Position numbers and translations under genes: made by a program. From NCBI GenBank assembly GCA_049320885.1, contig JBMORA010000001.1, forward strand, positions 178,622 to 242,621: DNA of 64,000 bases. Reading direction: 5' to 3'. The first letter of the stretch is position 1; every line of letters starts with the position of its first letter. Of this stretch, positions 50,425-64,000 are shown piece by piece. Source of the DNA: Thermodesulfobacteriota bacterium (GTDB lineage: Bacteria; Desulfobacterota; Desulfobacteria; Desulfobacterales; SURF-7). The notes under the pieces were generated by a model. The model searched no databases. It had not been told where the DNA came from and worked only from the letters and a program-made list of their open reading frames with translations.

Positions 50425-52347
50425 TCAGGAGAGCGGCGTTCCGCTTTCAACCTTACCGTCAATAACCACAAGTCTGGGACCGCTTCCGTCATTGGCTGCA
50501 AGCAGCATGCCCATGGACAAGACGCCCATGAGTTTCACCGGTTTTAAATTGGCAACCAGAACGACCTGTTTGCCGATAATCTCATCCGGCCGGTAGACCT
50601 CGGCAATCCCGGCCACAACCGTACGTTTTTCACCGATGTCGATTTCAAGCTTCAACAGCTTTTTGGCTCTGGGAATGGGCTCCGCGGACAGAATCGTGCC
50701 GATCCGCAGATCGACCTGTTTCAGGGCATCGATGCTTATCTCCGGCTTCAGTTCATGCAGCGGCCCTTTTTCACCGGCAGCTTCTTTTTCCGGCAATTGA
50801 TCGTTTTTCAGATCGATCCTTGGAAACAGCATGATGCCTTTCGGTAACGCGGCGCCGGATGCCAGAATACCCCATTGCCGCAACCTGTCCAGATTATAAA
50901 AAGCCTGTTCCGGGTCCTGACCCAGGTGAAGTTGCATGGTCTTGGCCGTATCCGGCATCACGGGATATAGCATACCCGACACCACCCGGAGCCCTTCCAG
51001 CAGATTGTAGATGACGGCTTGGAGTTGTTTCCAGCTGGTTTTTTTCTTCGCCAGTTCCCAGGGAGCGGTCACGTCGATATATTTGTTCATCTGGCTGATC
51101 AGCTCCCAGACAGCCATCAAGGCCTTGTGAAAAGCAAATGCGTCCATGGCCGTTTCGAAATCATCCACCGCCCTGCGGGCATCCTCGTCCAGACCGAAAT
51201 GGAAGGTGCTCTCGGCTTCCTTGTCCACAGCCGGTACCTGACCGTTGAAATATTTATGCGTCATGGCGATAACACGGGAGAAAAGATTCCCCAGGTCATT
51301 GGCCAAATCCGAATTGATTCGATGCACCAAAGCGGTTTCCGAAAAACCGGAATCCAGGCCGAACACCATATCCCTCATGAGGAAATAGCGAAACGCATCC
51401 AACCCGTAAATCGCTTTCATGCTCAACGGGTCCACGACATTGCCGATACTTTTGGACATCTTGCTCTCATCCACATTCCAATAGCCATGGACATTTAAAT
51501 GCCGGTAAACCGGAATTCCGGCGGCTTTCAGAATAATCGGCCAGTAAATTCCATGTGGTTTGAGGATGTCTTTCGCCACGATGTGCTGGGCCACGGGCCA
51601 GTACTTCCGGAACGCTTCTCCATCCGGGTACCCCAATGCGGAAATATAATTGAGCAATGCATCAAACCATACATATGTGACGTAGTTATCGTCGAAGGGT
51701 AAGGTGATACCCCATTTCAAGCGTGATTTCGGCCGTGAAATGCAGAGATCCTCCAGGGGTTCCCGTAAAAAGGCCAGAACCTCGTTGCGATAGCGTTCCG
51801 GACGGATAAAATCCGGATGGGTTTGGATATGCTGAATCAGCCAATCCTGGTATTTGCTCATCCGGAAAAAATAATTCGCCTCCTTGATCAGCTGGGGTTC
51901 CGTGTCATGGTCCGGGCATTTTCCGTTCACCAGCTCCCGTTCCAAATAAAATCGCTCGCATCCGAAGCAATACATCCCCTCGTATTCGCTGAAATAGATA
52001 TCACCGCATTCATAAATCCGCTGCAGAATCGAAGTGACCAGGGCGACATGCTCCTTATCCGTGGTGCGGATGAAATGATTGTACCGAATGTTCATTTCAG
52101 GCCACAACTCTTTAAAAAGCCGGCTGATCCTGTCCACATAGACCCGGGGACTGAGGTTCTCCTTCTCGGCGGCCGCAACGATTTTATCCCCGTGTTCATC
52201 CGTTCCGGTCAGAAAAAAACAATCCGCCTCGCGCATTCCATGGAACCGGTTGATGACGTCCGCGGCAATCGTTGTGTAGGCATGCCCCAAATGCGGTCGC
52301 GCATTCACATAGTATATCGGCGTCGTTATATAGAAGGAACCTGTCAT
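50425..52347 (-). CDS. metG: Methionyl-tRNA synthetase
   Basis: YITTPIYYVN, HLGH, KMSKS, C-terminal tRNA-binding domain. Confidence 0.97.
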   Translation of the reverse strand: MTGSFYITTPIYYVNARPHLGHAYTTIAADVINRFHGMREADCFFLTGTDEHGDKIVAAAEKENLSPRVYVDRISRLFKELWPEMNIRYNHFIRTTDKEHVALVTSILQRIYECGDIYFSEYEGMYCFGCERFYLERELVNGKCPDHDTEPQLIKEANYFFRMSKYQDWLIQHIQTHPDFIRPERYRNEVLAFLREPLEDLCISRPKSRLKWGITLPFDDNYVTYVWFDALLNYISALGYPDGEAFRKYWPVAQHIVAKDILKPHGIYWPIILKAAGIPVYRHLNVHGYWNVDESKMSKSIGNVVDPLSMKAIYGLDAFRYFLMRDMVFGLDSGFSETALVHRINSDLANDLGNLFSRVIAMTHKYFNGQVPAVDKEAESTFHFGLDEDARRAVDDFETAMDAFAFHKALMAVWELISQMNKYIDVTAPWELAKKKTSWKQLQAVIYNLLEGLRVVSGMLYPVMPDTAKTMQLHLGQDPEQAFYNLDRLRQWGILASGAALPKGIMLFPRIDLKNDQLPEKEAAGEKGPLHELKPEISIDALKQVDLRIGTILSAEPIPRAKKLLKLEIDIGEKRTVVAGIAEVYRPDEIIGKQVVLVANLKPVKLMGVLSMGMLLAANDGSGPRLVVIDGKVESGTPLS

Positions 52348-53159
52348 ATGCTCTCCTGTTCTCCCGTGTTTTTGATCGCCTCGATATCGATTTCCGTTTC
52401 GACGCCGTCTTCAAATTGAATCACGACGCGGTTGCAGATCACGTTCTGCCGGACGATCTTTCCCGATCGTCCGCTCACCGTTACCGGTTTGCCGATTTTC
52501 GGCGCTTTTTGGCGGAGATCGACATAAGTGTCGTTTTCAAACGTCAGACAACACATCAGCCGTCCACACTGGCCGGATATTTTCGTCGGATTCAACGAGA
52601 GTCCCTGGTCTTTGGCCATCCGTATGGAAACAGGCTCAAACTTGGACAGGAATGTCGAGCAACAAAGCTGCCGCCCGCATCTTCCGATGCCACCGCACAT
52701 TTTGGCCTGATTGCGGATGCCTACCTGGCGCATCTCAATACGGGTTCGAAACTCCTTCACCAATATTTTGACCAGCTGCCGGAAATCAACCCGGCCCTCG
52801 GCCGTAAAAAAAAAGGTCAGTTTATTCGCGTCAAAGGTGCTTTCCACCGCGAACAGATTCATTTCCAGTCTCAATAATTTGATCTGTTCCTGACAAAAAT
52901 CGTTCGCCTGTTTTTCCAGAGCGAGATTGCTCTCCTGTTGCGCGAAATCGTTTTCCGTCGCCAGCCGGCAGATTTTTTTCAGCGGGGTGGCAAGGCTCTC
53001 TTCCTCCACTTGAACCGGCAGGGAAGCAACCGTGCCGAACCCGAGCCCGTGTTCTGTTTCCACAATCACGGTATCACCGATATTCAACACGAACGCGCCG
53101 GCGTCGAAGTCGTATATTTTGCCGGCAGCCTTGAATCTCACTCCAACTACTTTTTTCAT
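52344..53159 (-). CDS. PSP1/RicT (YaaT)-family Fe-S protein
   Basis: GRVDFRQLV, RIEMRQVG, GRCGRQLCC, SGQCGRLMCCL. Confidence 0.92.
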   Translation of the reverse strand: MKKVVGVRFKAAGKIYDFDAGAFVLNIGDTVIVETEHGLGFGTVASLPVQVEEESLATPLKKICRLATENDFAQQESNLALEKQANDFCQEQIKLLRLEMNLFAVESTFDANKLTFFFTAEGRVDFRQLVKILVKEFRTRIEMRQVGIRNQAKMCGGIGRCGRQLCCSTFLSKFEPVSIRMAKDQGLSLNPTKISGQCGRLMCCLTFENDTYVDLRQKAPKIGKPVTVSGRSGKIVRQNVICNRVVIQFEDGVETEIDIEAIKNTGEQESI

Positions 53160-53162
53160 TGA

Positions 53163-54248
53163 CTATCCGCCCGCCATTTCCAGAATCAGCATATCCATCA
53201 CCAAACGCGCATTGGCATTGGCCTGGAGCCTTCTTTGCGCCATCCCGACAGCTTCGACAATCCGGTGCAGAGTCGCCGGGCGCCATCTATGACTGATATC
53301 CGCAATCAAATTGGTCATATCGGTATTGATGATCTTGTCCGGCGCATCCGTGAAGATCAGCAAATCCCGAAACCAGGTTTGACAAATGTCCAACACATCG
53401 GGCAGCCTTTCCTTGAGGCTGCAGAGTGTTTCCGCAAAATAAAGACGCTGACTGACCGAATGATCCGAAAGCGCTGAGATTTCCCGAAGAAGACGTTTCC
53501 GGAAAGCGCCCCACTCCGTCTCGCATATCTTCCGCGCCGTTGTCCAACTTCCGCCGGCCATCCGTGCCATGATTCCGGCTTGTTCCTGATCCAAACCGTA
53601 GGTTTCAACCAGCAATGGTTGAAGGCGTTGAGCCGGAATCGGATGAAATCTGACTTGTTGACACCGTGAAACAATGGTCGGCAACAGATCGGAGGCCTGC
53701 AGGGCCGTTAAAATGAAAATGGTCCCCACGGGCGGTTCCTCCAGAATTTTCAGCAAGGCGTTCCCCGCCTCGGCATTCAACCTGTCGGCATCGGATACGA
53801 TCACCGTGCGAACTTCGGCCTCATAGGGTTTCATGGCCAGACAGCGGCAAAGCTCACGAATCTGAGCTATTTTGATGACCCGGGCGGATGGTTTTACATA
53901 AATGATATCAGGATGTTGCCCCGAAAGTATCTTGCGGCATGGCCTGCATGTGCCACAGGGGATGTCCATTGGCGCGTCACAATCGACTCTTTCGGGGAAA
54001 ACCCCCGCCCCGGGTTCGGTCATTTCCGCCCTGTGAAGACAGTTACATGCCATGGCATAGGCCATGGCCGCATCCCGCTTGCCAACTCCTTCCATGCCGG
54101 TAAATAAAAACCCATGGGGAATGGACTGGTTTTGCAGCGTGGCGAATAAAAACCGTGCGACCTTTTCTTGGTAAATCAATATACGGGCTGCAGGCAGTTT
54201 TCGAAAGTCGAGCAACGTCTCGGAACCGGATGCGTGTTTAGTAATCAA
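53163..54248 (-). CDS. holB: DNA polymerase III delta' subunit
   Basis: FLFTG..GK, CGTCRPC, HPD, NALLKILEEPP, TIVSRC; start uncertain. Confidence 0.92.
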   Translation of the reverse strand: MITKHASGSETLLDFRKLPAARILIYQEKVARFLFATLQNQSIPHGFLFTGMEGVGKRDAAMAYAMACNCLHRAEMTEPGAGVFPERVDCDAPMDIPCGTCRPCRKILSGQHPDIIYVKPSARVIKIAQIRELCRCLAMKPYEAEVRTVIVSDADRLNAEAGNALLKILEEPPVGTIFILTALQASDLLPTIVSRCQQVRFHPIPAQRLQPLLVETYGLDQEQAGIMARMAGGSWTTARKICETEWGAFRKRLLREISALSDHSVSQRLYFAETLCSLKERLPDVLDICQTWFRDLLIFTDAPDKIINTDMTNLIADISHRWRPATLHRIVEAVGMAQRRLQANANARLVMDMLILEMAGG

Positions 54249-55199: not shown

Positions 55200-57479
55200 C
55201 TAATAGGGGGCCGCAATCGACGTCCCGGCCTGCCCCAGGCCGTACAGCTCGATCATGACCCGGTATATCGCGTCGTCCTCCCTTCGCATGCCGGACACAT
55301 CAAGCCCCCAGCACTGGGTCGTATAACGCAAACCGATGCCGGTTTCAATATTTTTACCGTCCTTCAAATTCCGTTCATATTTCCCATAAGTAGAAAAACG
55401 ATCCGTCAGGATGAAATCCGCCATCATCAGGATGGATTTCGATATTTCCTCCGCCTGACGGAACTCCGCATAAATACGGTGGCCGCTCTCGGCCGTCAGC
55501 ATGACCGTCTCGCTGTGGGAATCAAAGCGCCGGGTGTATGGATCCCATCCAAGATCGACCCGCAAACCGAAAGCGGGCACGGGCTGCAACTCCAGGGTTC
55601 CCGTCACGGCCGAAAAGGGCTCGGGCTCCTCGGCGTCGCGGGCCTCGTTGATATCATAGGACTGGGATAACCGAAAATAGCAGAATTGAGAATAGGCGAA
55701 GTTCCGGGGCACCCCGGCGACCGAAGCTTCGTGGTCCGGCCGCTGCGCCGGTTCGAACGGCTTGCGGGATGTCACCATATTGGTGATGGCATACGTTATC
55801 CGGTTCTGCTTCTCGATCCGGTCAAAGGCGTCGAACTGGGGGTAGCGGCTTTGATCCTCTTCCGGAATGTAATCGTATACGATCTGCGGCCGGATGGAAT
55901 GCTTCAACCGGTCCAGGCCCCATTGGTTCATGGTAAAAATACGATAGACTTCCGTGGACAAGTCCAGTTTCAAATCATAGAGCTGTCGATGGAAGGAGGA
56001 GCGGGTCGAATCGGCGCCCTCCTCCCAGGCGTTCACCTGCCACACGGTTTCCCGCAAACCGACGGATGGCTCGAACGAAACATAATTCCGATAGGAAAGC
56101 GGCGCGTAAACTCGCGGATACATCTCCGCCCGCTGCCCCCGATCGCTGTCCTTGCTGTAAAAATAGATATATTCGGAAGAAAGATCCCAAAACAACGGAT
56201 TTGCCCCGGGCATTTGATGCTTCAGACCGGAAAACCGAAGATGGGGCAGTTCCTGCATGGTGTCGTCGGTCTGTTCCCAGCGTCTTTTCACCACATCGTC
56301 TTTCCACAGCAGATCCGCATCGAAACTGTATAGCGTCCAGGTTTTGTTCACGTTCAGCTGGTTTTTCCGCGTTGTCTGGTTGTACTCATCCAAACCCCTG
56401 CCATAGGTGCCGACAAAATATTCCTGGGTCGCCCGAAACCCGTTGTATCCGTCTTCGAATTCCAGCAGATAGTCCTGATCACTGACCAGGTCCAGGTCCA
56501 GCTTGGCTTTCACACCGTGGCCGAAATCCTGATCATGTTTCATGCGGAACCAGTAGCGGTCTGAATTCGTCCTCAGGTACGCGTCTTCCGTATATCCCCA
56601 GTCCTCGCTGGTTTCGCCGGAACCGTCGTCCACCTTTCTGTCCCGCAGCAGATCGAGCATCACGGCGCCCTTCGTTTCCTCACTGAAGACATACCGGTAT
56701 TCACTTCCGATCCGGTTCCCTCGCTCGGACATGGCGTTGACATACAGGGTGGCGTCCATATTGTCATCAATGGCCCAGAAAAAAGGCTGATTGACATCAA
56801 GCCCCTTGCGATCCGCATAGCGGATTTCCGGAATGAGCAAGCCGGTCTGGCGTTTGGTCTTGGCCGGGAAAGGCAAGATCGGCGAGTAGAACAGCGGTAT
56901 TTGCCGGCCCCATAAAGCCGCCTCATGCGCAATGCCGTATCCTTCAACGGTCACTTCCATGTCCGAACACGTCATTTTCCAGTCCGGATCATCGCCGTCA
57001 CAGGTCGTAACCGTTGCTTTCCTGGCCGTATACGTCGCCGGACCGGTTTTATTGATTTCATCCGCCCGGATATGAAAATTCGTCACCGTTGAATCGATTC
57101 CGCCTTGATAAATGGTCCCGATCTCTTTTTCCAGATCGAGTTCGACACGGTCGGCCGTCACCGTATCACCATCCATTTTCGCGGTCACATGACCGCTGGC
57201 GAAAACCCGCCTTAAGGCCCTGTCATACCGGACATAATCCGCCGTCAATTGCTGCCGCGACCCGTGGATGCTTACATTGCCACTGGCGGTATATTCATCC
57301 TTCCCCTGGTCATAACTCATTTCATCCGCTAAAATGCGCCATGAGCCTGTCTCCGGCTCTTGGCCAAAGGAAGCCCATTCCGTCAAACACACCATCAGGA
57401 CAGTCGACAGAATCAATCGGCTCAACCGGAACATCCAACGGGAGGCCGTCCGCCGAAATCGCTTCGGCTTCCGTTTCAC
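55200..57479 (-). CDS. lptD: LPS-assembly protein LptD
   Basis: OstA-like N-terminus (ADEMSYD, TTCD..PDW), RQTGLLIP, PFFWAI, beta-barrel; start uncertain (57434-57569). Confidence 0.88.
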   Translation of the reverse strand: MKRKPKRFRRTASRWMFRLSRLILSTVLMVCLTEWASFGQEPETGSWRILADEMSYDQGKDEYTASGNVSIHGSRQQLTADYVRYDRALRRVFASGHVTAKMDGDTVTADRVELDLEKEIGTIYQGGIDSTVTNFHIRADEINKTGPATYTARKATVTTCDGDDPDWKMTCSDMEVTVEGYGIAHEAALWGRQIPLFYSPILPFPAKTKRQTGLLIPEIRYADRKGLDVNQPFFWAIDDNMDATLYVNAMSERGNRIGSEYRYVFSEETKGAVMLDLLRDRKVDDGSGETSEDWGYTEDAYLRTNSDRYWFRMKHDQDFGHGVKAKLDLDLVSDQDYLLEFEDGYNGFRATQEYFVGTYGRGLDEYNQTTRKNQLNVNKTWTLYSFDADLLWKDDVVKRRWEQTDDTMQELPHLRFSGLKHQMPGANPLFWDLSSEYIYFYSKDSDRGQRAEMYPRVYAPLSYRNYVSFEPSVGLRETVWQVNAWEEGADSTRSSFHRQLYDLKLDLSTEVYRIFTMNQWGLDRLKHSIRPQIVYDYIPEEDQSRYPQFDAFDRIEKQNRITYAITNMVTSRKPFEPAQRPDHEASVAGVPRNFAYSQFCYFRLSQSYDINEARDAEEPEPFSAVTGTLELQPVPAFGLRVDLGWDPYTRRFDSHSETVMLTAESGHRIYAEFRQAEEISKSILMMADFILTDRFSTYGKYERNLKDGKNIETGIGLRYTTQCWGLDVSGMRREDDAIYRVMIELYGLGQAGTSIAAPY

Positions 57480-57650
57480 AACAACATCCCATCCACCGCT
57501 GCCGGCGGACGATTTTTCTGTGACAAACGCTGGCATGACCCCCTGTGTTGAATCCGCGTTCAATCCCATTCAACCCATTGATACGGCATACCATCCCATC
57601 AGTCTGAAAGCGATTGGGAAGGCGCACGACCGTCGTTTACCGGATATCTC

Positions 57651-57786: not shown

Positions 57787-58542
57787 ATGAGCATTCTCGT
57801 TACCAATGACGACGGAATTTTCGCCAAGGGTCTCTGGGCGCTGCAGGAAGCCCTGATGGATATCTGCCGGGTAACGGTAATCGCCCCGGACCGGGAACGC
57901 AGCGCCGTGGGCCACGGCATCACCCTGCATGAGCCCATCCGGGCCGACAGGATCCGCTTGAACGACAGGCATTGGGGCTATGCGGTCAGCGGCACACCGG
58001 CGGATTGTATCAAACTCGGGCTGCTGGAACTGCTGGAGGAAAAACCGGCCATTGTGGTATCCGGAATCAATCCCGGCGCCAATCTCGGTGTCAACGTCAA
58101 CTACTCGGGGACCGTCGCGGCCGCGAAGGAAGCCGCCTTGTATGGTATCCCGGCAATGGCCGTATCGATATCCAATTCCAAGCCGAATTATTATGAAGAG
58201 GTCGCCGGATTTGCCAAACGCCTGGCGGAAACAATCCTGCGGAACGGACTGCCGGTTGGGACCTTTCTGAACGTCAATTGCCCGGACATGCCCGTCAAGG
58301 ACACATCCGGTGTGCGGGTAAGCCGCCAGAACACCCGATTTTTTCAGGAGCGCATTGAAAAAAAAATGGACCCGCGCAACCGGCCCTATTACTGGCAGGG
58401 CTGCGACGGCAAACCGGACTTATCGGACCCGGACATAGACAGCGATGCGCTCTGCGGCAATTATATCTCCATCACGCCGATCAAATGCGACATGACCGAC
58501 TATGACATGCTCGAAAACCTGAGGGGATGGAAGATCGATTGA
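57787..58542 (+). CDS. surE: 5'/3'-nucleotidase SurE
   Basis: ILVTNDDG, GTPADC, SGINPGANLG, YSGTVAAA. Confidence 0.96.
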   Translation: MSILVTNDDGIFAKGLWALQEALMDICRVTVIAPDRERSAVGHGITLHEPIRADRIRLNDRHWGYAVSGTPADCIKLGLLELLEEKPAIVVSGINPGANLGVNVNYSGTVAAAKEAALYGIPAMAVSISNSKPNYYEEVAGFAKRLAETILRNGLPVGTFLNVNCPDMPVKDTSGVRVSRQNTRFFQERIEKKMDPRNRPYYWQGCDGKPDLSDPDIDSDALCGNYISITPIKCDMTDYDMLENLRGWKID

Positions 58543-58543
58543 C

Positions 58544-59188
58544 ATGCTGATCACACTGGAAGGAATAGAAGGCTCCGGCAAAAGTACCCAGGTGCGACAC
58601 CTGGTTGATTTTATGCGGGAGATGGGCTATGAGTGTCTGGTCACCAGAGAGCCCGGCGGAACCAGGCTCGGGCAAAAAATCCGTACGATTTTATTGGATC
58701 CGGCAAATACCGATGTGGAGCCGCTGGCGGAGCTGCTGTTGTATGCCGCCGACCGCGCCCAGCATATCCAACAGATCATATCTCCGGCCTTGGCCAAAGG
58801 GATGACGGTCATATGCGACCGTTTCTGTGATGCGACCACCGTCTACCAGGGGTATGCCCGGGGTCTGGACCTAGGAACCATCGACCAGCTGCATCGGATC
58901 GTGCTGAATGGTCTCATCCCAGACCTGACATTGCTGTTCGATCTGCCGGTGGAGATAGGTCTGTCGCGGGCGTTTTCCGCCGTCGGCAGTGGTGACCGCA
59001 GGGAGTCCGAAACCCGGTTCGAACAGGAAGCCCTCGCCTTTCATGAACGGGTGCGGAACGGCTATCTGAGCCTTGCCCGGCTGAACCCGGAACGGTTCCG
59101 GATTCTGAATGCCGCCAGGGCGGAAACCGACGTCCGACATCAAATGATCCATGTCGTCCGGCAGCATGCGGGACGAGCATCCGGATGA
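58544..59188 (+). CDS. tmk: Thymidylate kinase
   Basis: LEGIEGSGKSTQ, TREPGGT, DRAQH, CDRF, YQGYARG. Confidence 0.96.
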   Translation: MLITLEGIEGSGKSTQVRHLVDFMREMGYECLVTREPGGTRLGQKIRTILLDPANTDVEPLAELLLYAADRAQHIQQIISPALAKGMTVICDRFCDATTVYQGYARGLDLGTIDQLHRIVLNGLIPDLTLLFDLPVEIGLSRAFSAVGSGDRRESETRFEQEALAFHERVRNGYLSLARLNPERFRILNAARAETDVRHQMIHVVRQHAGRASG

Positions 59189-59225
59189 TATCAATTGCTA
59201 CTGATATGACAGTCAGGAAACCGTG

Positions 59226-61502
59226 ATGAGTTTTTCGATTCTGGACACGATCGGCCGGACACCGCTGATCGAAATCAAACGTTTGAACCCCAACCCGAAG
59301 GTTCGGATTCTGGCCAAGCTGGAGTATGTCAACCCCGGCGGTTCCATCAAGGATCGGGCCGCGCTTTACATGATCAACGCAGGAGAAGCCTCCGGCGAAC
59401 TCACCCCTGACAAAACGGTTCTCGAAGCCACCAGCGGCAATACCGGCATCGGTCTCGCCCTGGTCTGCGCGGTCAAAGGCTACCGGCTGTTGCTGGCCAT
59501 GTCCGAAGCCGTCAGCCAGGAACGGCAAAAAATATTGAAGGCCAGGGGAGCGGACATCCTCCTGACACCGGGCCATCTGGGCACCGACGGCGCCATTGAG
59601 GAGGTGTACCGTCTGGCGCGGGAAAACCCCAAGGCCTATTTCATGACGGACCAATTCAACAATCCGGCCAACTGGCAGGCGCATTACGAAGGCACGGGGC
59701 CGGAAATCTGGGAGCAGACCAACGGCACCATCACCACCCTGGTGGCCACCATGGGAACCACCGGAACCCTCATGGGACTTTCCCGCCGCTTGAAGGAATA
59801 TAACCCGGATATCACCATCGTCGGTGTGGAGCCGTATCTGGGGCATAAACTTCAGGGCCTCAAAAATATGAAGGAAGCCTACCGTCCTGGAATTTTTGAA
59901 AAAAAACGACTCGACAAGAATCCGCATATCGATGATGAGGAAGCCTTTGAGATGACCCGGAGGCTGGCCAGGGAGGAAGGCCTTTTCGTGGGCATGAGCA
60001 GTGGAGCCGCCATGGTGCTGGCGGCCAAGGAAGCCGAGGCCATGACGGAAGGGACCATCGTCGTCATGTTTCCGGACAGCGGGGAACGCTATTTGAGCAC
60101 TTCGCTTTTCACCGTGCGGGAACAAGTGGAATTGACCTTGTTCAACACCATGACCCGCACCAAGGAAATCTTCGTTCCGGCCATACCGGGCAAGGTCTCC
60201 ATGTACACCTGCGGTCCCACGGCCCACGCCCCGATTCATATCGGCGAATGCCGCCGTTTCGTTTTTTCCGACCTTCTATCCCGCTATCTGGATTTTCGGG
60301 GTTACGAAGTGCGGCACATCATGAACATCACCGATCTGGACGATAAAACCATCCAGGGATCCGAAAAAGCCGGCGAGGGGCTCACCGATTTCACGGAAAA
60401 ACACATCCGCCGGTTTGACCAGGATCTGGCCGAGCTGAATGTCAAGCCAGCGGATGAATATCCCAGGGCCAGTCGTCATCTGGAAGATATGGTGGCCCTG
60501 GCCGGGAAGCTGGTTGAAAAGGGATATGCGTATGAAAAACTGCGTTCCCTGTATTTCAATATTTCCCGTTATTCGGATTACGGACGCTTGTCGCACATCG
60601 ATATTAATAAGGTGAGACTGGGCGCGACGGTGGATCTGGATGAATATGAAAAAGACAACCCCAGGGATTTCACGCTGTTCAAACGATCCAAGCTTTCGGA
60701 GCTGAAACGCGGTATCTACGTGAAATCGGACTGGGGAAACGTCCGACCCTCCTGGCATATCCAATGCGCGGCCATGTCCATGAAATACCTTGGGGAAAGC
60801 TTCGACATCCATACCAGCGCCCAGGAACTCATTTTCCCCCATCATGAAAACGTGCTGGCCACCGCCAGGGCTGTCACCGGGAAGCCCCTGGCCCGTTATT
60901 GGATCCACAGCGAGAGAATCCTGGTGGACGGTAAGAAGGTGGATGAAAAAGGGACTCGCCCGACACTGGACAATATCCGTCAGATGGGCTATACCGGCCG
61001 GGAAATCCGGTACTGGCTGCTTTCCAGCCACTACCGCAAACCCCTGATCTTCTCTCTCGACCGGCTGGAGGGCGCCCGGCAGGCGTTGAAACGTCTCGAC
61101 ACCTGCGTGCGGCGGCTGTTTGCGGTGCAGGCGGGAAAGTCCGTGACCGAATTGGATCAGCTGCGCTATGATATCAAACAGGGATTTGTCAGCGCCATGG
61201 ATGACGATCTGAACACCTCGGCGGCGCTGGCGGCTCTTTTTAAAAATATACGCAAAATCAATTTATTGCTGCAGAACGGTCACATCAACGCCCCCGATGC
61301 GGAAAAAATCATCGAAACATTTCGCGGCATCGACGAGGTACTGAAAATTTTCGATTTCAGCAACATGTATGCGGATTCGGAAATTCAGCGGATGCTCCAG
61401 GCCAGGGACAAAGCCCGCCTGGAAAAAAACTGGCAACTGGCCGATAAAATCCGCCAATCCCTGATCGAACACGGCATTGCCGTGCACGACACCAAAAGCT
61501 GA
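59226..61502 (+). CDS. Cysteine synthase (CysM/K) fused to a degenerate cysteinyl-tRNA synthetase
   Basis: NPGGSIKDR, EATSGNTG, GTTGT, DSGERYLS, then YTCGPT, NITDLDDK, WHIQC, FPHHEN and the anticodon domain, all in one frame. Confidence 0.92.
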   Translation: MSFSILDTIGRTPLIEIKRLNPNPKVRILAKLEYVNPGGSIKDRAALYMINAGEASGELTPDKTVLEATSGNTGIGLALVCAVKGYRLLLAMSEAVSQERQKILKARGADILLTPGHLGTDGAIEEVYRLARENPKAYFMTDQFNNPANWQAHYEGTGPEIWEQTNGTITTLVATMGTTGTLMGLSRRLKEYNPDITIVGVEPYLGHKLQGLKNMKEAYRPGIFEKKRLDKNPHIDDEEAFEMTRRLAREEGLFVGMSSGAAMVLAAKEAEAMTEGTIVVMFPDSGERYLSTSLFTVREQVELTLFNTMTRTKEIFVPAIPGKVSMYTCGPTAHAPIHIGECRRFVFSDLLSRYLDFRGYEVRHIMNITDLDDKTIQGSEKAGEGLTDFTEKHIRRFDQDLAELNVKPADEYPRASRHLEDMVALAGKLVEKGYAYEKLRSLYFNISRYSDYGRLSHIDINKVRLGATVDLDEYEKDNPRDFTLFKRSKLSELKRGIYVKSDWGNVRPSWHIQCAAMSMKYLGESFDIHTSAQELIFPHHENVLATARAVTGKPLARYWIHSERILVDGKKVDEKGTRPTLDNIRQMGYTGREIRYWLLSSHYRKPLIFSLDRLEGARQALKRLDTCVRRLFAVQAGKSVTELDQLRYDIKQGFVSAMDDDLNTSAALAALFKNIRKINLLLQNGHINAPDAEKIIETFRGIDEVLKIFDFSNMYADSEIQRMLQARDKARLEKNWQLADKIRQSLIEHGIAVHDTKS

Positions 61503-62902: not shown

Positions 62903-63001
62903 ACCCTTCGCTTTAACAATCAGTCTTTACGCATGAATCCGCCGTTACCGGAATTCTTCGGGGCGGTTCGGCATAACCACAAGACCGATTGGCGGAATTT
63001 C

Positions 63002-63046
63002 CAAGCCCCCGGCATATCGATATGCATATCCGGGGGCTTGCATTTT
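63002..63046 (+). terminator. Hairpin / terminator after the ferredoxin gene
   Basis: CAAGCCCCCGG...CCGGGGGCTTG followed by CATTTT. Confidence 0.6.
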
Positions 63047-63096
63047 CCTGCCGTCCTCCGGTTGTTTCCATCCACCACCGGGTGGTTCCTGGGAAA

Positions 63097-64000
63097 ATGA
63101 AATCATCCCGCTTTCCCCATGTTCCTGCTTATCCCCGCTTCGCCATGGTCCGGCAGCGTCTGCATGCCGCCGCCGTGAAGGATATCGCCGCATCCGTCCG
63201 GCATGCCGTGGCCGGTTTTGCGGAAACAACCCGGATTGCGCCGGGAGGCTCGGTGGCGGTCGCCGTCGGCAGCCGGGGAATCCATGGCATCGACCAGGTC
63301 GTCCGGCATTGCATCCGCGCCTTGATCCGGAGCGGGCTTGCGCCGTATATCGTCCCGGCCATGGGAAGTCATGGCGGGGCAACTCCCCAAGGCCAGGCGG
63401 CCGTGCTGGAGAAATACGGAATAACCGAGGCGGCCATGGGGGTTCCCATCCGCCCGGAGATGGAAACCGTGGCGGTCCATGACCTTGACGGCCTGCCGCT
63501 CCATGTGGCCCGGACCGCCATGGAAGCCGACCACCTGGTTATGATCAACCGCATCAAGCCCCATACCAAATTCACGGCCCCCATTGAAAGCGGGCTCTGC
63601 AAAATGCTGACCGTCGGGCTCGGCAAGGTTGAAGGCGCGGCGGCATTTCATCGTCATGCGGTGAAACACGGTTTCCGGATCATCGAGACAGCCGCCCGGC
63701 GGTTGCTGAAACAATCGAATCTGCTTTTCGGCTTGGCGCTGCTGGAAGACGGCTACGGCCGGCTGGCCCATGTGGAGGCCCTGCCGCCGTCCATCCTGGT
63801 GGAACGGGAAAGGGAACTCCTGCAAAAAGCCTATTCCTGGATGGGGAAAATCCCCTTCGACCCCGTCGACATCCTGGTCATCGATTATATCGGCAAGGAC
63901 ATCAGCGGCATCGGCATGGATTCCAACGTCACCGGCCGGCACCGGGACATCACCGGCGATTTTTTCAGCCCGCCCCATCCCGGCAGAATCTTCGTCCGGG
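63097..64000 (+). CDS. LarA-like (lactate racemase N-domain / DUF2088-DUF362-type) protein, 3' truncated
   Basis: Manually translated: VAVAVGSRGI, IVPAMGSHGGAT, NRIKPHT, ESGLCKM..GLGK, GKDISGIGMDSNVTGR; absent from the ORF track because there is no stop in the window. Confidence 0.78.
   Translation, partial: MKSSRFPHVPAYPRFAMVRQRLHAAAVKDIAASVRHAVAGFAETTRIAPGGSVAVAVGSRGIHGIDQVVRHCIRALIRSGLAPYIVPAMGSHGGATPQGQAAVLEKYGITEAAMGVPIRPEMETVAVHDLDGLPLHVARTAMEADHLVMINRIKPHTKFTAPIESGLCKMLTVGLGKVEGAAAFHRHAVKHGFRIIETAARRLLKQSNLLFGLALLEDGYGRLAHVEALPPSILVERERELLQKAYSWMGKIPFDPVDILVIDYIGKDISGIGMDSNVTGRHRDITGDFFSPPHPGRIFVR

Follow-up and report, generated by a model that had tools for sequence, protein, structure and literature searches.

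Aminoacyl-tRNA synthetase paralogs that act as regulators and no longer charge tRNA are few, and to our knowledge HisZ and the HisRS-like domain of GCN2 are the known examples. HisZ, a paralog of histidyl-tRNA synthetase (HisRS) that is not known to carry an anticodon domain, is the regulatory subunit of the ATP phosphoribosyltransferase HisG. Among paralogs of cysteinyl-tRNA synthetase (CysRS), two types lie closest to the gene described here. According to excerpts of PMC2922099, MshC (Cys:GlcN-Ins ligase) does not charge tRNA and is believed to adenylate cysteine. Excerpts of PMC7609411, reporting on Mukai et al. 2017, describe the CysRS* of Desulfobacterales as a protein without the anticodon-binding domain (ABD) that is reported to be active and whose gene adjoins a selC* tRNA-Cys and selB*. 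The present work concerns a third type. It is encoded on a window of 64,000 nucleotides (the whole stretch of DNA analysed; positions 178,622 to 242,621 of contig JBMORA010000001.1, assembly GCA_049320885.1) from a Thermodesulfobacteriota bacterium of the order Desulfobacterales. In this gene, termed the fusion below, a CysM-type cysteine synthase continues in frame into a full-length CysRS-like body with altered ATP motifs. No description of a fusion between CysM and a dead CysRS was found in full-text searches of the literature, and the available portions of PMC2922099 and PMC5388404 contain none.

Pfam and NCBIfam agree with the first-pass annotation of the window that the synthase is intact and in frame with a full-length CysRS-like body. 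Along the protein, Pfam places PALP (residues 7-285, 243 bits), tRNA-synt_1e (318-618, 272 bits), DALR_2 (655-710, 42.8 bits) and CysS_C (719-758, 26.4 bits). The reading frame opens with a GTG codon, and the ATG at 59226, where the 758-residue database protein begins, is its second codon. Against NCBIfam models, the protein exceeds the cut-offs of both cysKM (TIGR01136, 359.7 against 344.15 bits) and cysS (TIGR00435, EC 6.1.1.16, 368.3 against 340 bits). It carries the database name cysteine--tRNA ligase because of the latter score. It stays under the equivalog cut-offs for CysM (TIGR01138, 350.6 against 394.2 bits; NF008735, 335.9 against 413 bits) and also under that for CysK. The synthase half is 43-44% identical to CysM and includes the SIKDR motif. 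It shares the pyridoxal phosphate (PLP) lysine, the asparagine loop and the phosphate loop with O-acetylserine (O-phosphoserine) sulfhydrylases such as E. coli CysM (2BHS), but those enzymes lack the 460-residue CysRS-like extension that the fusion carries. The extension is 34-38% identical to solved canonical CysRS and contains all four CysRS domains. With E. coli CysRS (1LI5, 1U0B) and the closest solved relative (8QHP) it has in common this four-domain plan, the zinc ligands C28, C209 and H234, the residues W205 and T68, and the anticodon readers. It differs from them in its HxGE and KVDE motifs, its altered GGG loop and GRPGWH motif, its synthase partner and its place in a separate clade.

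Motifs in the CysRS-like half were called by alignment to E. coli CysRS (1li5), whose numbering is followed here, and to the canonical CysRS of the same genome. At the ATP site, H40 and K269 are both replaced by glutamate, G225-227 by T-S-A and D229 by glutamate. The first-pass annotation had listed the motif changes as HIGE, KVDEK, DIHTSAQEL and VRPSW, and all four are borne out at the positions it gave, as is its remark that MetG (50425..52347, minus strand) retains HLGH and KMSKS. The family was sampled with 186 unique orthologs at 61-100% identity, obtained by deduplicating 120 database and 75 full-length locus proteins. At HIGH position 4 they carry E in 167 cases, Q in 11, D in three, K in three, V in one and L in one, with H or N in none, and the residue that follows is C in 161. 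The K269 position is E in 127, R in 16 and D in 10; G204 is replaced by S (S510) in 185 and E208 by Q in 178. Substitutions of the ATP motifs that recur in this way over 186 unique orthologs are far beyond chance. With acidic residues at H40 and K269, G225-G227 replaced and no ortholog bearing H or N, the module is very probably unable to adenylate cysteine, as the first-pass annotation had proposed. Aminoacylation by the fusion appears very unlikely, since the ATP site has been lost and the cell possesses a real CysRS.

The losses are localized. When 82 canonical CysRS sequences were compared with 120 fusions, the canonical-invariant positions retained amounted to 19 of 30 in the second Rossmann half and 5 of 10 in the KMSKS loop, where the losses concentrate, as against 20 of 22 in the first Rossmann half, 15 of 19 in the connective (CP) domain, 3 of 3 in the DALR domain and 5 of 5 in the C-terminal domain. 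The CP domain also carries basic inserts that are at least 97% conserved among fusions and correspond to a gap in 81 of the 82 canonical sequences. Alignment agrees with the earlier claim that C28, C209, H234 and W205 are retained in the window protein, which has T68 as well and thus three of the four zinc ligands. The fourth, E238, had been noted as replaced by V. This is true of the window protein and is no trait of the family, in which the position is E in 153 of the 186 orthologs, K in 12, V in nine and I in eight. Elsewhere in the cysteine pocket, H234 is found in all 186, C28 in 185, W205 in 182, T68 in 176 and C209 in 165. The anticodon region R..AR..KNW..AD.IR, likewise reported as intact, proved to be so in the alignment. 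Its readers R427, D436 and R439 are present in 186 of 186 orthologs and W432 in 180, and are therefore about as invariant as the PLP lysine K43, which together with S71 and N73 of the synthase is kept in all 186. According to the accessible text of PMC13449415 (2026), these four residues were targeted to alter the anticodon specificity of E. coli CysRS, in which Arg427 hydrogen-bonds G34.

An AlphaFold2 model of the fusion built from 43 sequences (mean pLDDT 86.8, pTM 0.71) has low confidence in the linker at residues 298-300 (pLDDT below 50), in the CP loop at 467-476 and in the former KMSKS loop. The C-terminal part of the model superposes on CysRS, with a TM score of 0.92 to 8qhp and of 0.84 over 466 columns to tRNA-bound 1u0b, and the N-terminal part matches CysM (2bhs) at a TM score of 0.94. 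Among the structure matches listed, no solved chain spans both halves.

A search for a second, canonical cysS in the genome, as the first-pass annotation had advised, found one on another contig (571.6 bits), complete with HIGH, GRPGWH, DIHGGG, HHENE and KMSKS. The assembly, which is 98% complete, also carries a stand-alone cysK; CysK and the fusion are its only cysteine synthases. The best match to serine acetyltransferase (cysE) in this genome, G000:C60:27811-28305, scores 172.6 bits against a cut-off of 210.65. In a quick maximum-likelihood tree with a midpoint root, fusions of the window type group in a clade of their own with support 100, apart from the clade of canonical CysRS (support 99). 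By its sequence, the fusion is thus a paralog distinct from the enzyme that charges tRNA-Cys in this genome. A fusion and a separate cysS occur together in all ten hand-picked genomes of the phylum, five of them closed. In a sample of 121 genomes of the order, a query that bridges the junction of the domains detected the fusion in 110. Of these, at least 104 also encode a distinct cysS with a higher score, and two more (G116 and G038) are ambiguous. The cysS-like match in the latter (G038:C50:69477-70463) has an in-frame TGA.

Selection is strong on both halves of the gene. Relative to the two closest orthologs, the synthase half has ratios of nonsynonymous to synonymous substitution rates (dN/dS) of 0.031 and 0.045, and the CysRS-like half has ratios of 0.087 and 0.084. 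For the real cysS of the same genome pair the ratio is 0.145, above the value of the CysRS-like half, and at the amino-acid level the CysRS-like half is 86% identical as compared with 79% for the real cysS. Because H and N are absent from HIGH position 4 in all orthologs and dN/dS lies below that of the real cysS, strain-specific decay is not at work, and the CysRS-like part is a functional module under strong purifying selection. The earlier view of the degeneration as targeted therefore stands, and the degeneration is conserved, given its recurrence over the ortholog set and the dN/dS of 0.087 against 0.145.

The fusion is common in this part of the bacterial tree. It occurs in 110 of the 121 genomes and 82 of the 92 genera of the order sample, and 486 relatives are found among species-representative genomes. 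The closest named relative, in Desulfosudis oleivorans, is 85% identical. Across the phylum it is present in 122 of 301 sampled genomes, almost all-or-none by family, and closed genomes of 1.5-1.8 Mb are among those that have it. Over the same range the score of the CysRS-like half against the cysS model declines continuously from 457 to 126 bits. Motif states run from HLG[LV] with KMSRS, through HIGE with KVDEK as in the window, to forms that are also without C28 and C209, such as the fusion of Desulfovibrio ferrophilus, which has lost both and is annotated as 'cysteine synthase'. Every motif class retains the PLP lysine, the SGNTG loop and the C-terminal signature R..AR...[WF]..[AS]D..R. What stays constant across the family is then the active site of the synthase together with the anticodon readers, and the Zn/Cys pocket does not. 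As the pocket is lost in some lineages, cysteine sensing cannot be the family-wide role. With the pocket dispensable and the readers effectively invariant, the pattern favours tRNA-Cys over free cysteine as the putative family-wide ligand.

When the order sample was searched with only the synthase domain as query, at a threshold set to keep CysK out, stand-alone CysM-type genes turned up in 6 of the 11 genomes without the fusion, and the 110 genomes with it had none. The stand-alone frames are 302-349 residues long and 50-56% identical. The second hits in G077 (C38, C44) and G105 (C18, C20) are second copies of the fusion. The invariant PLP site, the low dN/dS and this distribution, complementary to that of stand-alone CysM, together indicate that the CysM half is the core activity of the fusion. 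Two fusion genes in the samples are interrupted. That of G095 has two TGA and two TAA stops in the synthase half (C8:525413-526291), and in G132 (C1:2737672-2739059; L113/L114) the CysRS-like half is split, with one TGA. Like the TGA in the cysS-like match of G038, these stops may mark pseudogenes, assembly errors or recoding.

Compared with the described systems, the fusion resembles HisZ and the GCN2 domain in its logic, that of a non-charging synthetase paralog tied to its own amino acid, and the analogy as drawn in the first-pass annotation seems reasonable. As with HisZ, catalytic motifs are lost and the module is physically joined to the enzyme that makes the amino acid. HisZ and GCN2 belong to class II, whereas the fusion is of class I and covalent, and it keeps the anticodon domain, which HisZ is not known to have. 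MshC is also a non-charging CysRS paralog, yet the fusion has lost the ATP motifs and is not an MshC, with 183.5 bits against the TIGR03447 cut-off of 485.1. CysRS* is likewise a second gene of the CysRS family in the same bacterial group; unlike it, the fusion retains the anticodon domain, no longer has the ATP motifs and lies downstream of tmk. Proteins probably of the CysRS* type are seen at two sample loci, L022 (G026:C35) and L023 (G030:C79). They are CysRS-like, ABD-less and about 400 residues long, retain HIGN or HVGN and KMSKS, have D at the C209 position and RHHDY in place of HHEN, and nest within canonical CysRS in the quick tree. The window genome has selC* and selB* and is without cysS* or any ABD-less CysRS. 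Its selC*-type tRNA-Cys(UCA) lies outside the window, about 75 kb downstream of the fusion (G000:C1:315730-315821; L016:4731-4822), and has an A1:U72 pair, a U73 discriminator, an 8-bp acceptor stem, a bulged 4-bp T stem and a long variable arm. A selB-like gene (286.6 bits) comes next and then a double-cubane reductase gene, with no cysS*. An ordinary CysRS should not read A1:U72, as the excerpted text of PMC7609411 has it. A CysM-CysRS fusion from a metagenome-assembled genome of Nanoarchaeota (P0125, 768 residues) has the same domain order and is 45% identical to the fusion. It differs in its canonical HIGN, GRPGWH and KMSK motifs and falls among canonical CysRS in the quick tree; this fusion probably arose independently and is possibly bifunctional.

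In the reading favoured here, to which a probability of about 0.5 is given, the fusion would be the cell's CysM furnished with a non-charging sensor module that binds tRNA-Cys and, in this clade, zinc and cysteine as well. The CysM-type synthase would carry a C-terminal module derived from CysRS in which activation of cysteine by ATP is gone. The module would most likely dock tRNA-Cys through its GCA anticodon without charging it and, in the clade of the window, would also dock either cysteine or charged tRNA-Cys by its cysteinyl end. Docking would make the activity of the attached synthase depend on the condition of the tRNA-Cys and cysteine pools, giving a built-in sensor with the logic of HisZ on HisG or of the HisRS-like domain of GCN2. 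Both the binding of tRNA-Cys, zinc and cysteine and its coupling to the synthase are what we infer and not what was observed. A more specific version can be put forward tentatively, in which anticodon reading combined with the Zn pocket would discriminate charged from uncharged tRNA-Cys and switch cysteine synthesis at the protein level.

Several observations count against a tRNA-Cys-binding sensor on CysM. Eleven of the 121 genomes of the order manage without the fusion. Residues of the anticodon domain could be conserved for structural reasons, and the Zn/Cys pocket is variable within the clade and lost in several lineages of the phylum. The fusion scores above the NCBI cut-off for cysS (368 against 340 bits). 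Three genomes (G001, G065 and G095; 91-94% complete, 6-8% contaminated) showed the fusion as their only cysS, and in G030 it is accompanied by an ABD-less CysRS with no other cysS. The lack of another cysS in these four genomes fits gaps in the assemblies, a fit that is not proof.

If the protein were a working but unusual cysteine--tRNA ligase, as its annotation states, then its score above the TIGR00435 cut-off, its fold with cysteine pocket and tRNA readers, and the three incomplete genomes would be accounted for. The acidic residues at H40 and K269, the filled-in GGG loop and the co-occurrence of a canonical cysS in 5 of 5 closed genomes and in at least 104 of 110 others make this very improbable. 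Another role for the pocket is that of a pure end-product sensor on the pattern of HisZ, where the zinc site would bind free L-cysteine and inhibit the synthase allosterically, leaving the tRNA-binding parts as leftover scaffold. HisZ provides the precedent, C28, W205, H234 and T68 are retained in the clade, and the synthase is CysM-like by score, a type of enzyme that is not known to be under the control of a CysE complex. We nevertheless regard this proposal as unlikely. Several lineages have the fusion but no longer the pocket, E238 and C209 are variable even within the clade, and the anticodon readers are effectively invariant; the anticodon-binding domain, which HisZ is not known to have, is here the best-kept part.

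A sensor that binds tRNA-Cys also has to be weighed against tRNA-dependent chemistry, in which the CysRS-like body would position tRNA-Cys while the PLP domain acts on a tRNA-borne group, be it the aminoacyl moiety or a nucleobase or thiol nucleophile that attacks the aminoacrylate intermediate. The retained anticodon readers, the very short linker and the basic CP inserts specific to the fusion would suit such a task, and CysM-type enzymes can use macromolecular sulfur donors, an example being CysO of Mycobacterium tuberculosis. In opposition, the TSGNTG loop, which binds the free carboxylate of the substrate, is invariant, the Rossmann pocket is heavily eroded in some lineages, and a distribution complementary to stand-alone CysM suggests an ordinary CysM role. 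SepRS and SepCysS are also absent. Profile searches of the genome gave at best 26.4 bits for SepRS against a cut-off of 380.65 and 25.7 bits for SepCysS against 365.25, which excludes the phosphoserine tRNA route. Persulfide synthesis by CARS (Akaike et al. 2017) needs the lysines K73, K76, K266 and K269, according to excerpts of PMC5660078. The fusion keeps K73 and K266; K76 varies, being Q in the window protein, and E stands in the place of K269. A CARS-type route is therefore disfavoured as K76 and K269 are not retained, and the tRNA-linked or persulfide sulfur route offered in the first-pass annotation has lost ground on both counts. Overall, we think tRNA-dependent chemistry quite unlikely. 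The dead CysRS body could alternatively be a scaffold that brings the synthase together with partners, such as the real CysRS or the product of the orphan gene that follows the fusion, in a complex that channels cysteine. The best solved relative, 8qhp, is titled as a CysRS homodimer, and the orphan is adjacent to the fusion in two gene orders and accompanied by it in 64 of 66 genomes of the phylum sample. The orphan, however, sits in the tmk operon of 7 of 11 fusion-less genomes and is lacking in five that bear the fusion, and a scaffold seems improbable. Sensing of cysteine or tRNA-Cys by the module, with a regulatory effect on the synthase, is what the first-pass annotation proposed and what we infer from the sequence comparisons.

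Table 1. Positions of the fusion gene, its parts and adjacent genes in the 64,000-nucleotide window.
Feature	Position	Strand	Remarks
surE	57787-58542	+	upstream gene
tmk	58544-59188	+	directly upstream; ends 34 nt before GTG at 59223
Fusion reading frame, CysM-type cysteine synthase and CysRS-like module	59223..61502	+	759 aa from GTG
PLP cysteine synthase domain, residues 7-297	59241..60113	+	PALP, TIGR01136
PLP lysine K43	59349-59351	+	synthase domain
TSGNTG loop	59430-59447	+	synthase domain
GTTGT phosphate loop	59754-59768	+	synthase domain
Short interdomain linker, residues about 298-303	60114..60131	+	low pLDDT; CysRS alignment begins at residue 304
CysRS-like Rossmann fold, CP domain and former KMSKS loop, residues 304-618	60132..61076	+	tRNA-synt_1e; alignment to 1li5, 8qhp, 3tqo
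Cysteine matching E. coli zinc ligand C28	60210..60212	+	alignment to CysRS
Former HIGH motif, now H-I-G-E-C-R	60237..60254 (HIGE 60237-60248)	+	alignments
Fusion-specific insert K-L-R, CP domain	60537..60545	+	fusion against canonical alignment
Second fusion-specific insert L-K-R-G-I, CP domain	60702-60716	+	fusion against canonical alignment
VRPSWHIQC (G201V, G204S, E208Q; W205 and zinc ligand C209 retained)	60741..60767	+	alignment
DIHTSAQEL in place of DIHGGGxDL	60804..60830	+	alignment
HHENV (zinc ligand H234 retained, E238 to V)	60840..60854	+	alignment
Former KMSKS loop, now K-V-D-E-K	60936..60950	+	alignment
DALR_2 helical domain including MDDDLNT	61185..61352	+	Pfam
C-terminal anticodon-binding domain	61377..61496	+	Pfam CysS_C
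Anticodon readers R732, W737, D741, R744 (E. coli R427, W432, D436, R439)	61416-61454	+	alignment numbering
Orphan gene, 325 aa	61539..62516	+	36 nt 3' of fusion

The fusion lies in a housekeeping cluster whose gene order is partly conserved (Table 1). Among 80 related loci, tmk lies immediately upstream in 68 and the orphan gene directly downstream in 53, with enough flank at 60 for the latter to be seen. The orphan start frequently abuts or overlaps the stop of the fusion, and in one family the orphan lies immediately upstream instead, with an overlap of 11 nt. Neither the orphan family, with 10 distant homologs included, nor the protein itself has a match in Pfam or NCBIfam, and sources that name it give 'hypothetical protein'. 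Its model is confident (pLDDT 83, pTM 0.83) but found no Foldseek match at E <= 0.001, a wide structural search went no higher than Z 4.7, for a match confined to one helix, and the Atlas returned nothing usable; these results do not amount to evidence for a new fold. The family has an N-terminal M-x-P-x-Y-F-P-F-T and invariant P7, F23, W67, L124, D131, R181 and W185. A divergent HolB was considered as its identity and rejected, as holB is encoded elsewhere in the genome.

Within the order, 105 genomes have the fusion and the orphan, five the fusion only, seven the orphan only and four neither, which places the orphan in 112 of 121. In fusion-less genomes the order of genes is surE, tmk, orphan, and in two genomes the orphan stands beside a gene for a DinG-type helicase. 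Because it is kept in the tmk operon of 7 of the 11 fusion-less genomes and missing from five fusion-bearing ones, the orphan belongs to that operon independently of the fusion, and its candidacy as a dedicated partner was downgraded on the same grounds. Of the 301 genomes in the phylum sample, 66 were found to have it. The orphan and the fusion may be functionally linked. An Rfam scan found no credible RNA element at the locus, and promoter and terminator scans there were at chance level. Upstream on the minus strand, a housekeeping run from 50425 to 54248 comprises holB (53163-54248), a gene read by us as PSP1-like (52344-53159) and metG. An lptD-like gene (55200-57569) separates this run from the operon of surE, tmk and the fusion. 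Downstream, a frame on the plus strand that runs off the end of the window (62989-63999) encodes a LarA-like nickel-pincer-cofactor isomerase (NF052515, 352 bits against a cut-off of 400).

What is new in this analysis is the erosion gradient across the phylum with invariant readers, the comparison of dN/dS between the fusion and the real cysS, the complementarity with stand-alone CysM and the analysis of the orphan. The fusion is present in a large share of bacteria of the sulfate-reducer type. In several hundred species the gene goes under the name 'cysteine--tRNA ligase' or, where the lineage is degenerate, 'cysteine synthase'. The product is probably not a ligase and not a plain synthase either, and such mislabelling can mislead the inference of pathways and of essential genes. 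The series from near-intact to fully eroded CysRS, in which the readers are always kept, offers a natural set for asking why a synthetase scaffold is retained. The module would be a class I regulatory pseudo-synthetase joined covalently to the synthase that produces its amino acid. If cysteine synthesis is indeed gated by tRNA charging, the fusion would do as a protein what the T-box riboswitch does as RNA and would parallel GCN2 in bacteria, and such a device would be found almost throughout Desulfobacterales and widely among Thermodesulfobacteriota.

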